In this document: in pieces, positions 41,145-44,840 of the stretch
Layout of the letters: every line of letters begins with the position of its first letter
How positions within the stretch are numbered: the first letter of the stretch is position 1
IMG/VR virus record: IMGVR_UViG_3300029305_001878
Span: 1 to 64,000 of that record
Direction: 5' to 3' (one strand)
Length of the DNA stretch: 64,000 bases
Origin: a virus
Lineage: Duplodnaviria > Heunggongvirae > Uroviricota > Caudoviricetes
Position numbers and translations under genes: made by a program
Notes under the pieces: generated by a model
What the model was told of the DNA's origin: nothing
The model's input: only the letters and a program-made list of their open reading frames with translations
Databases searched by the model: none

Positions 41145-43303
41145 ATGAGTAGTAAATATGTTGACCCCACTGCTATTATGCAAGTTATTGGGTGCGTTTA
41201 TAATAATCCACGATTGTTAGATTATACAGATAAATATACAATAACAGATGATGATTTTCCTGATACATTTCATAAAACAGTGTTTGGATGTATATATAAA
41301 CTTTATGAATTGGGTTCAAAGAAAATTACTTTGGAAAATATATCCGACTTTTTGGATACTCGTCCTAAAAGTCAAGCAATATATAAACAACAAAAAGGCG
41401 AAGAATGGTTATTAAAAGTAAGTGAAAATGCAAATCAATTAACTTTTGATTATTATTATGGACGAATGAAAAAAATGTCTTTACTTCGTGCATATGATAA
41501 TTATGGTGTTGATGTGAGCGATATTTATGACCCTGATAACATTCTTGATACTAAAAAGAAACAATTGCAAGAAGATAATCTTGATAATTCTACATTAGAT
41601 GAAATTGCTAATAAAGTCGATATGAAAATTGATTCTATTAGACTTCAATATGTAGATAATGTTTTTGGTAAAGCCCAACAAGTTGGTAGCGGCATTTTTG
41701 ATTTAATTGAGCAATATAAGCAGAATCCAGAAGTAGGTATTCCTCTTTATGGTCCATTGATTAATACAGTTACTCGAGGTGCTAGACTAAAGAAATTTTA
41801 TTTGCGGTCGGCGGCAACCGGAGTGGGGAAAGCAATCCCTAATAACACTTTAATTCCTACTCCTGCTGGATGGAGAAAAGTTGGAGATATTAGACCCGGA
41901 GATAAATTGTTTGGGCAAGATGGAAAAGAAACTATTGTTCTTCAAATTCATCCTCAGCCGCAGGAGAAAGAAATTTGGAAAGTAACTTTTGCAGATGGAA
42001 GAATTGCGGAATGCTGTGGAGAGCATTTATGGGAATATTGTTATAAATCTCATAGGGGATATAGTTATAGAGTTGAAGATATTCAAACTATTTATAATAG
42101 AACACTTACATTAAAAAATGGTTTAAAAAACAGTGATGGAAAAGGATATAGATTTCATATTAAACTAAATAATCCTGTTGAATATGAAGAAAAGCAATAT
42201 TATCTTCCTCCTTATGTAATGGGTGCTCTACTTGGTGATGGCAGTTTTAGATATAATAATACCAATAAATCTCTTGAATTTTCTTCGGCAGATGAACAAA
42301 TTCCTTCTTTAATTGCTATTGCTCTTGGAAGCAACTGGCAAAAAGGAAAAGTCCATACCATTTATGCTAAAAAAAGTTCAGAAAATAATTATAGTTGGAC
42401 TTTTAGAGATAAAGAAAATCCTACTCATCCTTTTTGGGTAGAAGAAATGCTAAAAGATTATCCTAAACTTTGGAATGTTAAATCTGAAGATAAGTTTATT
42501 CCTAAAGATTATCTACAAGGTTCCATATTTCAAAGACAGTGTTTATTGCAAGGACTTATGGACACAGATGGTTCAGTTGATGAAAAAGGTAGAACTTCTT
42601 TTACAACTATTAGTCCTCAATTAAGAGATGATTTTATTGAACTTTGTAGAAGTCTTGGTTTTATCGCTACTTATTCGACAGACTTACGAGATAAATATTC
42701 AACAGGTGAATGTTATACAATTCATATTCAAGCCCCTAAAGAAATGAAGAAACATTTCTTTAGATTACAAAGAAAACATAATATTATTAAAAATTATTTA
42801 GCAAATAATAAGCGAGAAGAACATAAAGACCATTTAGCAATTATAGATATTGAAAAAACTACTGAATTATCAGATATGACTTGTTTTACAGTAGATAATG
42901 ATAATCATCTGTTTTTAATGAATGATTTTATTGTTACACACAATACTCGTTCAATGATAGCCGATGCTTGTTATATTGCTTGCGAAAAAATTTATGATGA
43001 AATGTTTGGATGGATTAAAACTGGTATAAGTGAACCTGTTTTATATATTGCTACCGAGCAAGATTTGGAAGAAATCCAAACAATGATGTTAGCATTTGTT
43101 TCCAATGTTAATGAAGAGCATATTGTTAATGGACAATATGAAGATGGTGAATACGATAGAGTTAAAGAAGCAGCGAAAATATTAACTAATTCTAAACTTT
43201 ATCTTGAAGAATTACCAGACTTTTCTCTTCAAGATGTTGAAAATATTATTAAAAAGAATATTCGTGACAATGATACTAAATATATATTCAACCCGAAAAG
43301 GGT
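41145..43303 (+). CDS. dnaB: DnaB-like replicative helicase, exon 1 (contains intein)
   Basis: N-terminal DnaB domain. Walker A GVGK|T interrupted by the intein. The exon ends AGGGU before the group I intron; the apparent TAA at 43311 is intronic. Confidence 0.75.
41832..42944 (+). other. Intein (371 aa) with LAGLIDADG homing-endonuclease domain, inserted in the helicase P-loop
   Basis: Block A AIPNNTLIPTPAGWRKVGDIRPGD (Ala1). LAGLIDADG motifs YVMGALLGDGSF and LQGLMDTDGSV. C-terminal VTHN followed by +1 Thr, which restores GVGKT. Confidence 0.7.
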
Positions 43304-44332
43304 GTTGGGATAATGAAACACTTTTCCACTAATCAGTGGGGTCTGCGAACTGGAAAATTTTGGAAATTCGCAGGCTAACGGGGAACCCTAAACGAGAAAT
43401 CGCAAGGGAATCCCGTGGGAAATTTGGACGAAAATAGTCAATAACTTTTTGACTTCTTTCATACTAAAATGAAAGAAGGCGATAAAATGGGTATTATTTA
43501 TTGTTTTACTAATAAAATAAATAATAAAAAATATATTGGATAGACTATTAATCCTAAATAGCGATATAATGCTCATAAAAGCAATTATCAAAATAGTAAT
43601 AATTAGGAATATAATTCTTTGCTTCATAGAGCATTTAGAAAATATGGCTTTGAAAATTTTGATTATGAAATCTTATCCAAAGATATAGATGATATAGATT
43701 TATTAAATAAATTAGAAATATTTTATATCACTAAATTTAATACAAAAGCCCCAAATGGTTATAATGTTGAGAGTGGAGGAAAAAATGCTCCTAAACCTAA
43801 AACATTAGAACATAAGAAAAAAGAAATTTGGGGTTAGGCTAAATTAACAGAAGAAGAAGTTATTGAACTGCGAAAAGCATATAAAGCCAAGAAAAGTCCA
43901 ACTGAAATTTATAATAAGAAATATAAAAATAGATTACATTATAATTCTTTTTTAAATATTTGGTCTGGACGTAGATATGGATTAATTATGCCAGAAGTTT
44001 TTGAAAAAGGACGTCATACTAAATTAACTGCTGATATAGTAAAAAAAATAAGAAAAGATAAAGAAACTTTAAATCTTTCTTATCAAAAATTAGCAGATAA
44101 ATATGGTATTTCTAAATCAACAATTGCTGATATAATTAATTATAGAACTTGGAAAGATGTCTAAAAACCTGTATCGACTATTCCCTAGGTCTTATGGGCG
44201 GGGAAGTAGGGCTACTATTGATACGTAGTCGCATTTTAGGAAACGAAGTGCGTTAAATGCCGAAAAGGTGTCCTATGATAAATTATCATAGTAAGAGATA
44301 GTCAGCGCCTATGGAAACATAGGAGAACGTAG
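43304..44332 (+). ncRNA. Group I intron 1 (in dnaB-like helicase) carrying a GIY-YIG homing-endonuclease gene
   Basis: 5' exon ends AGGGU. Conserved elements ggctaacgggga...aatcccgtggga and a 3' core (gtagggctactattgatacgtagt...gatagtcag...) shared with introns 2 and 3. The terminal G is 29 nt after gatagtc, as in the other introns. Confidence 0.65.
43487..44164 (+). CDS. GIY-YIG homing endonuclease (intron-encoded); 4 TAG
   Basis: GIIYCFTNKINNKKYIG-TAG-TINPK-TAG-RYNAHKS is the canonical GIY-x10-YIGQT...R...H motif with TAG at the invariant Gln. C-terminal NUMOD-like HTH. Confidence 0.8.
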
Positions 44333-44840
44333 CCACGACTATATACATACTAGTATAAAAATTCTAGAAGAAATTACTCGCAAGAGTGGTGGAGTTAAAT
44401 TGCGTGAAGATAATATTCTATTTATGTTATCTACTCGTTTAAAAGATATCTGTAATCAATATGGCGTATTTATTATGTCAGCAACGCAGTTAAATGGTGA
44501 TTATAAAGATAGTGAAACTCCTGACCAAAACTTATTGCGTGGTGCGAAGTCTATTGCTGATAAAATCGATTATGGTGCAATTTTATTATCAGTAGTTGAT
44601 GATGATTTAGTAAAATTAGAGAGTATTCTTGCTACTGGTCAATTTACTACACCAAATATTAAAATGTCTATTTATAAAAACCGTCGAGGCAGATATAAAG
44701 GAGTTTATTTATGGTGTAAGGCAGATTTAGGAACCTGCCGCATTAAACCTATGTTTTGTACAGATTATCGATATGAATTACAAAGTATCGATGATATAAG
44801 AGTAAGATTTGAAGAAGAGTCAGCGTTTGAAGATGTATAA
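44333..44840 (+). CDS. dnaB: DnaB-like helicase, exon 2
   Basis: HDYIHT (compare IDYLQLM), then FIMSATQLN (SQLNR-like) and YKNRRGRYKG. Frame joins exon 1 via gt|c. Confidence 0.7.

Follow-up and report, generated by a model that had tools for sequence, protein, structure and literature searches.

Introns and an intein are found together in the ribonucleotide reductase genes of phage SPbeta, and the signature of class 3 inteins was reportedly defined by Tori and Perler. This signature combines an alanine at position 1 with a Trp/Cys/Thr triplet (PMC7664689, PMC5222942), and inteins of this class interrupt the P-loop of the DnaB helicases of mycobacteriophage Bethlehem and of M. smegmatis and M. 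chimaera (DnaB1; 6bs8 and 6rix; PMC6195587, PMC7664689). In Agate phages, which are stop-recoded gut phages, a group I intron endonuclease located in an early gene is written preferentially with the recoded stop codon, and Borges et al. propose that the recoded stop delays production of the nuclease (bioRxiv 10.1101/2021.08.26.457843). The locus described here combines elements of these kinds. It lies in a 64,000-nucleotide (nt) stretch of DNA from a tailed phage (IMG/VR record IMGVR_UViG_3300029305_001878, positions 1 to 64,000), referred to below as the window. Between positions 41145 and 44840, a DnaB-type helicase gene of a phage that reads TAG as glutamine appears to have been invaded independently by a class 3 intein, inserted in the P-loop, and by a group I intron carrying a GIY-YIG endonuclease gene; the probability of this reading is put at roughly 0.86. 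The gene is laid out as follows, with a slash marking a junction in short motifs here and below.

41145 to 41831, plus strand: helicase N-extein, amino acids (aa) 1-229, with the Walker A sequence GVGK at its end; it has a match to the N-terminal domain of Pfam DnaB and is colinear with the uninterrupted homologue P0001 and with contig L002.
41832 to 42944, plus strand: class 3 intein of 371 aa (Ala1 to His370-Asn371) with a LAGLIDADG homing endonuclease domain; no in-frame TAG; absent from 97-98%-identical homologues.
42945 to 43288, plus strand: C-extein part of exon 1 (TRSM...KYIF), the final codon of which is completed by exon 2; 94.8% identical to L002 6193-6539.
43289 to 44332, plus strand: group I intron, IA-like, 1044 nt, precisely absent from contigs L002 and L003; the tail NPKRVLG-stop that continues exon 1 in frame is intron.
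44333 to 44840, plus strand: helicase exon 2, (F)HDYIHTS...SATQLNGD...EDV-stop; 92% identical to L002 from 6541 onward.

In the standard code, the plus strand shows an open reading frame (ORF) of 722 aa at 41145-43313, with matches to Pfam DnaB (N-terminal) and DnaB_C and, in mid-ORF, to LAGLIDADG_3 and Hom_end. A second ORF at 44400-44840 lies in another frame, and the intervening 1.1 kb holds short ORFs alone. Standard annotation would miss the correct product, a DnaB-type helicase of 512 aa, and would report fragments in its place: a 'helicase' of 722 aa whose tail is spurious, several short ORFs and an orphan of 146 aa. A 722-aa ORF identical to that of the window is present on a 185-kb contig, and the genome is about 185 kb, of which the window covers about one third.

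Database searches with the conceptually spliced protein returned thousands of relatives, and all 120 among the matches listed were uninterrupted, at 509-513 aa. The best of the uninterrupted homologues, P0001, has 512 aa and 97-98% protein identity, and the two contigs that carry it, L002 and L003, are colinear with the window and 93% identical to it in helicase DNA. The homologue alignment gives the junctions GVGK/TRSM and KYIF/HDYIHTS, and deletion of 41832-42944 and 43289-44332 leaves 1539 nt, the exact length of the L002 and L003 gene, in a frame of 512 codons. BLAST segments between the window and L002 break at 41830/42942 and at 43288/44334. The DnaB_C match runs across the splice junction of the conceptually spliced protein, and the junction KYIF/HDYIHTS is invariant in the seven sequences in which it was found. 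The exon ends to be joined are ...ACTAAATATATATT and CCACGACTATATAC..., giving ...AAATATATATT/CCACGACTAT... at the spliced junction. Set against a relative of 93% identity, the window carries three precise and mutually independent insertions or deletions; each restores the frame, a pattern far beyond chance. An earlier note on this DNA, made from the sequence alone, had described a DnaB-like gene with a 371-aa intein in the Walker A P-loop, the splicing of which restores GVGKT, and an exon 2 that supplies an SQLNR-like C-terminus. The Pfam matches and the uninterrupted homologues bear this out: the insert lies directly after GVGK at 41832-42944, and exon 2, running to 44840, encodes the end of the helicase, SATQLNGD included.

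Because the DNA differences from the uninterrupted homologues are mostly synonymous (93% nucleotide against 98% amino acid identity), the comparison indicates that purifying selection acts on the spliced product. The empty intron site in L002 reads AAATATATTTTTCATGACTATATAC and its spliced counterpart in the window AAATATATATTCCACGACTATATAC; the three differences, which flank the intron site, are synonymous. Compared with L002, the gene differs most in its first 180 nt and near the intein site (bins 540-720 nt), and clustering at the element sites would be the expected trace of co-conversion or target-site immunity.

The two elements are distributed independently of one another. Neither is present in L002 or L003; five loci (L016, L035, L049, L067 and L082) hold a related intron alone at the same helicase codon, with GVGKT intact 115 aa upstream; L090 and L091 hold the intein alone, in one continuous frame when TAG is read as Gln; and the window holds both. 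Since the relatives show all four combinations of presence and absence, the intein and the intron move separately. In L090 (3353-5956), the helicase had been called as two genes of 171 aa and 651 aa solely through one TAG, and with TAG as Gln it is a single intein-containing, intron-less helicase.

The insert in the Walker A motif was compared with inteins of known structure and with homologues from a database search, and its characteristic blocks were located as follows.

42018 to 42032, plus strand: block B, GEHLW (His65, Trp67).
42213 to 42248, plus strand: LAGLIDADG motif 1 (YVMGALLGDGSF), aa 128-139; weak matches to Pfam LAGLIDADG_WhiA and LAGLIDADG_2, with G131, G135 and G137 conserved.
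42543 to 42578, plus strand: LAGLIDADG motif 2 (LLQGLMDTDGSV), aa 238-249; Pfam LAGLIDADG_3 (4e-9) and Hom_end (9e-7), with G241, D244, D246 and G247 conserved.
42873 to 42947, plus strand: blocks F and G, DMTCFTV (Cys351)...VTHN, with Thr+1 at 42945-42947.

The search returned 252 homologues of the intein, embedded in DnaB_C, PhoH, AAA_30 and UvrD-type proteins, so that the clade also occupies PhoH, AAA_30 and UvrD-type P-loops of uncultivated phages. In all 98 full-length homologues the insert follows GxGK and the +1 residue is Thr or Ser; the window has GVGK/[371 aa]/TRSM where P0001, L002 and others have GVGKTRSM. Position 1 is Ala here and in most of the 98 homologues, with no Cys, Ser or Thr nucleophile. 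H65, W67, C351, T369, H370 and N371 are invariant in an alignment of 62 sequences, and the residues W67 (block B), C351 (block F) and T369 (block G) form the Trp/Cys/Thr triplet, the aligned residues being identical in MchDnaB1 (6rix). The intein closes with His-Asn followed by the nucleophile, HN/T. A phmmer search of the PDB matched two mycobacterial DnaB1 inteins of class 3, those of M. chimaera and M. smegmatis, as well as the helicase intein gp41-1, at E=4e-9 to 4e-6, the best match being MchDnaB1 6rix (E=4e-9); PI-SceI was matched over the nuclease part. The Pfam LAGLIDADG_3 (36.9 bits) and Hom_end (29.4 bits) scores both exceed their cutoffs.

AlphaFold run on the single intein sequence gave an unusable model, with a predicted local distance difference test (pLDDT) score of 39.7, and the run was repeated with the 62-sequence alignment, giving an AlphaFold 2 model with a pLDDT of 95.4. 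Foldseek matched this model to PI-SceI (2e-16), to TliVMA and PI-PfuI (to 1e-10) and to the class 3 DnaB mini-inteins, with probability 1.0. The LAGLIDADG domain is modelled as a pseudo-dimeric fold resembling I-DmoI and PI-SceI, with both motifs intact. By sequence and model, the element is best described as a class 3 intein with a Hint and a LAGLIDADG fold and with all catalytic residues present; the Ala1 start, the two LAGLIDADG motifs and the C-terminal HN/T named in the earlier note were all seen in the 371-aa insert. The intein would be translated with the helicase and would then remove itself by protein splicing (GVGK/A...HN/T). By the class 3 mechanism, block F Cys351 would attack the N-terminal junction, the N-extein would be passed to Thr+1, and Asn371 would cyclise. 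The LAGLIDADG domain would be expected to cut intein-less alleles, leading to homing.

The window comes from an uncultivated tailed phage recoded for TAG as Gln. On the plus strand, 24 of 68 ORFs contain in-frame TAG codons, 68 in total; these frames close with TAA or TGA and are otherwise intact. They include genes for a RecJ-like protein, guanylate kinase, RuvC, a radical SAM enzyme and tail-fibre-like proteins. Where TAG and another codon differ between the window and L002, the other codon is CAA or CAG in 13 of 16 cases. Codon 13 of the helicase is CAA in the window and TAG in L002, where the source database had translated TAG as Q. Three GIY-YIG genes write the motif YIGQT/YVGQT/YVGQA with TAG for Q. 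As judged from these sequence comparisons, TAG is read as Gln (genetic code 15) in the window. None of the 36 Gln codons in the window helicase is TAG (p about 0.04). A strict model in which early genes are free of TAG was considered and is not supported as a rule, as the L002 helicase has one.

This reading of TAG bears on the endonuclease gene of the intron.

43453 to 43479, plus strand: hairpin with a 10-bp stem (43453-43478) that sequesters the nuclease Shine-Dalgarno sequence GAAGG (43475-43479); RNAfold -12.5 kcal/mol.
43487 to 44164, plus strand: GIY-YIG homing endonuclease gene in the P6 loop, 225 codons with a TAA stop and a C-terminal helix-turn-helix (HTH); a single frame with no frameshift.

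Four in-frame TAG codons, at 43541, 43559, 43604 and 43835, are the only interruptions of this gene. With TAG read as Q, the product matches TIGR01453 'group I intron endonuclease' (NCBIfam) over residues 1-224 at 74.5 bits (cutoff 56.05), as well as Pfam GIY-YIG (1.2e-8) and HTH_3 (1.6e-5). The earlier note had assigned a GIY-YIG endonuclease to the intron; the GIY-YIG/HTH gene is indeed there, and its frame is not open in the standard code. That code breaks it into pieces of at most 72 aa, as would be expected if the gene were a decaying pseudogene with four nonsense mutations and the intron an immobile relic that needs splicing only. I-TevIII of T4 is, by its record annotation, a precedent for a defective intron nuclease. 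A pseudogene is nevertheless very unlikely. All four interruptions are TAG and lie in one frame, with no frameshift, TAA or TGA in a genome of about 30% GC; the TAG-only pattern is shared by the housekeeping genes listed above; and the read-through product matches its family end to end, over the cutoff. TAG and CAR also swap between relatives, orthologous nucleases having CAR-encoded Gln at two of the four TAG sites.

Within the wider intron family, about half of the nuclease ORFs need TAG read-through and none needs TGA. TAG makes up 34% of the Gln codons of GIY-YIG genes against 9% in other genes (Fisher p=3e-7). Hairpins cover the Shine-Dalgarno sequence in all three introns of the window, and a hairpin over the Shine-Dalgarno sequence also regulates I-TevI. 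Translation of an active nuclease would in this case be doubly restrained, as the hairpin would hide the ribosome-binding site and the four TAG codons would need the suppressor system of the phage; such a double restraint may delay or limit nuclease synthesis.

A further possibility is that the intein or the intron no longer splices; this helicase copy would then be dead, and the phage would replicate with host DnaB or some other helicase. For both elements splicing is deduced rather than observed, and no second helicase was seen in the window, about a third of the genome. Every catalytic residue of the intein is intact, however, and the protein sequence of the exteins and exons keeps 97-98% identity to uninterrupted homologues while most of the DNA changes are synonymous, which makes a dead gene highly improbable.

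Evidence for the intron as a group I ribozyme came from the comparison of its flanks and core with relatives at the same and other insertion sites. The parts of the structure are listed below.

43285 to 43312, plus strand: P1, formed by exon UAUU (43285-43288), a loop hairpin (43289-43307) and internal guide GAUA (43309-43312), with a U43288.G43309 wobble.
43318 to 43326, plus strand: P3 5' strand (ACACUUUUC), pairing with 44262-44271; four distal pairs 90-98% canonical.
43326 to 43373, plus strand: two P2-like hairpins (43326-43339 and 43343-43373) between the P3 5' strand and P4; the first covaries (AU in 12, GC in 11, CG in 10).
43378 to 43419, plus strand: P4 (ACGGG/CCCGU), P5/P5a (43386-43408) and P6 5' strand GGG (43417-43419); P5 covaries (CG, UA, GC, AU).
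44168 to 44332, plus strand: 3' core ending in the terminal G 44332, with covariation in P7.1, P7.2, P8 and P9.
Within the 3' core, plus strand: P6' at 44168-44170, P7 at 44176-44181/44298-44303, P7.1 at 44182-44204 and P7.2 with an inserted hairpin at 44209-44261.
Also within the 3' core, plus strand: P3' at 44262-44271, P8 at 44273-44291, J8/7 at 44292-44297 and P9 at 44308-44323.

The intron starts 345 nt past the end of the intein, just upstream of the Walker B Asp (KYIF/HDYIH). Its 5' splice site follows U43288 and its terminal G44332 precedes CCACGAC, the relatives at the same site ending in ...G/YCAYGA; UGG at 43306-43308 could form P10 with CCA of exon 2. In every family member, a conserved AUGAAA is directly preceded by four bases complementary to the final four of the exon. 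The same-site relatives have UGUU/GACA in P1, and at other insertion sites the pairs are ACGU/GCGU, CGGU/GCCG, CGUU/GACG, UGGU/GCCA and AGUU/GACU, so that guide and exon covary at no fewer than seven insertion sites, in different host genes. The earlier note had been unable to identify a P1 pairing with an internal guide; UAUU/GAUA is that pairing.

The 3' 170 nt of the intron resemble two further places in the window, and its 3' core is 79% identical to an intron that interrupts the gene for DNA polymerase III alpha in Enterococcus phage EF5, with EF1 and Lak megaphage sequences also similar. A 16-mer core pattern (ACTATTGAYACGTAGT) fetched 85 stretches of viral contigs. Among the fetched loci and the window there were 90 pattern matches, 64 of them with flanking P7 strands and 48 with a recognisable 5' half. 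Besides the five same-codon loci, L008 and L065 share the 3' junction of the helicase intron, and relatives of about 250-330 nt with no ORF (L010, L011, L032 and L047) occur in gyrase/topoisomerase-like and other genes. The 13-nt P7.2 loop ACUAUUGAYACGU is conserved in all members; it made up most of the search pattern, and its conservation is hence not independent. In L045 and L083, a family intron appears inside the GIY-YIG motif GIYKITN...YIGQA, so that the nuclease-like gene itself would be invaded. The core also matches TAG-recoded Lak megaphages of Prevotella (records MK250015-28).

Covariation was counted with our own scripts in an alignment of 43 non-identical, ORF-deleted introns, using a structure defined on the window intron. 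Across the 62 pairs tested, 91% of pairings were canonical as defined, compared with 40-46% when the partner was shifted by 1-3 columns and 77% (maximum 78%) when columns were shuffled. Both sides changed at 38 of the 62 pairs, with compensatory changes in the P2-like hairpin, P3, P5, P6, P7.1, P7.2, P8 and P9. One P3 pair is GC in 11 sequences and UA, CG and AU in 9 each; a P6 pair is GC in 34, CG in 7 and UA in 2; P7.1 has UA in 22 and CG in 21; and P7.2 varies among GC, AU and GU. P4 and P7 (GACUAU/AUAGUC) are invariant, and the stretch 43378-43419 aligns with T4 td AACGGGGAACC...AATCCCGTG. Because P7.1 and P7.2 are present between P7 and P3', the intron belongs to subgroup IA. An RNAduplex search for the P3 partner was too noisy and was replaced by anchoring on the conserved P2 hairpin. 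Pairing at P9.0 was 21-33% canonical in an alignment with misaligned 3' ends, and no claim is made for it. Other candidates for the structure were rejected: two wobble pairs at 43415-43416 in P6, which overlap P4 and never vary; GCUAAC as the P3 5' strand, which is invariant with no consistent partner; and GCC 44259-44261 with GGC 43374-43376, which was given up for P7.2, which covaries.

The covariation also bears on whether the helicase could instead be made as two polypeptides, the 1-kb insert being a free-standing nuclease cassette that splits the gene with no RNA splicing. Phage genes split by nucleases are known, for example nrdA of Aeh1; here exon 1 meets a stop seven codons beyond the junction, exon 2 offers an in-frame TTG at 44400, and Rfam sees no ribozyme. 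A split gene is nonetheless extremely unlikely. The sequences on either side of the nuclease ORF together form a group I core that covariation supports, with P1, guide and terminal G, and the ORF-less versions imply that the RNA is conserved apart from the nuclease gene. Where exon 2 truly begins there is neither a ribosome-binding site nor a start, and the gene would be split shortly before the Walker B Asp. On the preferred reading of a group I intron, the element would be removed at the RNA level, with P1 UAUU/GAUA and its U.G wobble at the splice site, and the 512-codon frame would be restored.

The 1029-nt intron of the earlier note, a length that fits a start at 43304 with the junction ...AAAAGGGT/CCACGAC and five extra residues (NPKRV) in the helicase, is in frame and places AAAAGGGU, ending at 43303, where introns 2 and 3 of the window both have exon ...AGGGU at the 5' site, but it is barely credible, as the five residues occur in no homologue, the DNA alignment with L002 breaks at 43288, no guide pairs with AGGGU while UAUU/GAUA stands exactly at the guide position of the family, and the ACCC...GGGU segment taken for exon forms a hairpin within the loop of P1, where L067 shows a compensatory change (ACCUU/AAGGU). 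A trial splice keeping NPKRVS likewise gave a six-residue insertion with no counterpart in any homologue. The actual length is 1044 nt. The earlier note's group I intron with a GIY-YIG gene downstream of the intein is borne out by the covariation-supported core, the U.G 5' splice site and the terminal G. Its broader proposal of an intron and an intein in one DnaB-like gene stands, as close relatives lack both elements with exact boundaries; the note misplaced the 5' end of the intron and missed the need for TAG read-through.

Several observations weigh against the reading of an intein and a group I intron in a TAG-recoded gene. Protein splicing of the one element and RNA splicing of the other are steps that we infer, as are the activity and timing of the nuclease; what the comparisons establish directly are the boundaries, the folds, the catalytic residues, the RNA covariation, the reading of TAG and the separate distribution of the two elements. 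Curated models of the splicing domain stayed below threshold: the hidden Markov models (HMMs) Hint_2 and Intein_splicing scored 15.1 bits (cutoff 28.4; E=0.03) and 13.6 bits (cutoff 35.8; E=0.06), TIGR01443 scored 10.7 bits (cutoff 15.6), and intein_Cterm gave E=0.49. Rfam RF00028 found no match in the whole window at the gathering score or in 43000-44700 at E<=10, nor in the four ORF-less relatives at E<=0.1 or in 281 nt of L011 at E<=10. There is one extra A between P9.0 and the terminal G relative to the relatives, and the P3 5' strand directly follows the guide, the P2-like hairpins lying between P3 and P4, unlike the order in td. ARAGORN found no tRNA, hence no suppressor tRNA, in the 64-kb window of the roughly 185-kb genome. 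The idea of a nuclease timed by TAG is weakened, as the L002 helicase itself has a TAG and the intron 2 endonuclease has none.

The HMM result, which the earlier note would have taken against an intein, is read as a limit of sensitivity, because the fold, the PDB sequence matches and the 98 homologues agree; the Hint blocks are formally below threshold, and these three lines of evidence nevertheless establish the intein. Rfam, proposed in the same way as a check on the intron, gave no match over the region, and the comparative evidence nevertheless establishes the intron. In control searches, RF00028 matched T4 td at 40.3 bits (E=9e-8) and nrdB at 35.7 bits (E=2e-6). Since these controls match and a 281-nt ORF-less member does not, the intron family is genuinely outside the Rfam model, which misses the ORF-less members as well as the window intron. 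A 2025 paper reports that covariance models can miss phage introns (PMC11878797). As for the missing suppressor, suppressors were detected in just about 40% of such recoded genomes (Borges et al., bioRxiv 10.1101/2021.08.26.457843).

A wider proposal can be put forward only tentatively, and as a whole it is doubtful. It holds that a large IA-like subfamily unseen by covariance models, with P2-type hairpins between P3 and P4, has spread over many conserved genes of gut phages and reaches the Lak megaphages; that its GIY-YIG genes, about half of which need TAG, are deliberately written with TAG and placed behind a hairpin occluding the Shine-Dalgarno sequence; and that the nuclease would in this way be gated by the code switch of the phage, protecting early splicing of essential replication genes.

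Two further introns of the same family lie in the window.

47808 to 48782: intron 2, in a RecJ/DHH-like gene, junction ...YTEG/HANAFG; absent in L002, with P1 AGGGU/GCCCU.
54642 to 55780: intron 3, in a DnaE-type DNA polymerase III alpha gene with exons at 52145-54641 and 55781-57144.

The GIY-YIG/HTH nuclease gene of intron 2, at 47972-48628, has no TAG, and that of intron 3, at 54825-55649, has one, within YVG-TAG-T. The related introns of Enterococcus phage EF5 are in the same kind of gene as intron 3.

Elsewhere in the window, TAG-bearing stretches such as 23020-24324, 46548-47807, 57270-57854, 63348-63833 and 670-2930 are fragmented by standard-code ORF calling. The ORF at 36046-37044 encodes an N-terminal membrane helix, a long coiled coil and a C-terminal GIY-YIG domain, with 12 TAG codons. 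A free-standing GIY-YIG endonuclease gene with four TAG codons (60264-61202) directly follows the anaerobic ribonucleotide reductase gene nrdD (57916-60189). Another four-TAG ORF, at 7918-8670, has repeated CxC...CGC zinc-ribbon-like motifs and a DUF2726 (nuclease-like) C-terminus, and may be another mobile endonuclease. The genes at 3045-5495, 8718-10274, 13805-15574 and 19528-20985 have a GC content of 0.41-0.46 against about 0.30, no TAG and long mirror ORFs on the opposite strand; their Gln is almost exclusively CAG (for example 27 CAG and 0 CAA), and such genes may have been acquired recently or may be structural genes expressed at a high level. A promoter and terminator scan of 40500-45200 found 26 promoter-like sites against 29 expected and no terminators, and was uninformative.

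Megablast against phage genomes returned a single 100-bp match, to the EF1/EF5 intron; with nothing else matching, the region lacks a close cultured relative. The spliced helicase is 35-40% identical, in one colinear piece, to helicases of Enterococcus Herelleviridae-like phages, to SPbeta YorI and to others. The replication module is SPbeta/Herelleviridae-like, with YorF, YorH, a YorI-like helicase and a DnaE-type polymerase.

The locus exposes two blind spots in standard checks: the intron escapes the Rfam group I model and the intein the curated Hint HMMs, although comparison shows both to be real. The missed intron family is common in phage contigs, with 64 places holding the core in the fetched contigs and the window, and BLAST also finds it in Lak megaphages and Enterococcus phages. 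The alleles with neither element, the intein only, the intron only and both form a natural set for studying two homing elements that share one essential gene, and with the nuclease gene the published idea of recoded stops as a restraint on intron nucleases gains a TAG=Gln example.

Compared with described systems, the intein is closest to the class 3 DnaB P-loop inteins named at the outset, which sit in the same host protein family at the same Walker A point and likewise have no Cys or Ser at position 1, the Trp/Cys/Thr triplet and a THN/T or THN/S end (E=4e-9). Those with solved structures are mini-inteins, to which the window intein is about 25-32% identical over the splicing domain, whereas it is itself full-size with a LAGLIDADG domain. 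PI-SceI, TliVMA and PI-PfuI have the same two-domain Hint and LAGLIDADG fold (Foldseek E=1e-16 to 1e-10, TM about 0.6), but they are class 1 inteins (Cys1) in V-ATPase or ribonucleotide reductase genes, with 13-16% identity to the window intein.

For the intron, the nearest model is the group IA2 intron of T4 td, which has nearly the same P4-P5-P4' (AACGGGGAACC...AAUCCCGUG), the same R element and P7.1 (CGACUAUCCC...GGGGAGUAGGG), P7.1 and P7.2 in common and, as I-TevI, a GIY-YIG gene in a loop of the 5' half immediately upstream of P7. In td, P2 lies upstream and the P3 5' strand directly before J3/4, whereas in the window intron the P3 5' strand follows the guide and two hairpins precede P4; its P7.2 has a 13-nt invariant loop and an inserted hairpin, its nuclease gene contains TAG sense codons, and RF00028 matches td (40 bits) and not the window intron family.

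The Agate phages read TGA as Trp, while the window phage reads TAG as Gln, and its helicase family is not strictly free of recoded codons (TAG at codon 13 in L002). By analogy, the idea of a delayed nuclease fits the window phage, though it is not proven. The crAss-like phages, a lineage different from that of the window phage, are known to have genomes with many group I introns and inteins, including genes in which an alternative code occurs together with introns or an intein (PMC7886860); with such intron- and intein-dense phage genomes published (PMC7886860; bioRxiv 10.1101/2021.08.26.457843), the earlier note's view that two selfish elements in one gene are unusual was overstated. Each part of the locus is known: the class 3 P-loop helicase intein, the IA-type phage intron with an I-TevI-like nuclease, and the recoding of TAG as Gln. 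Mildly new are the widespread intron subfamily invisible to Rfam, the unusual placement of its P2-like hairpins, and a clean TAG case of nuclease-biased recoding.

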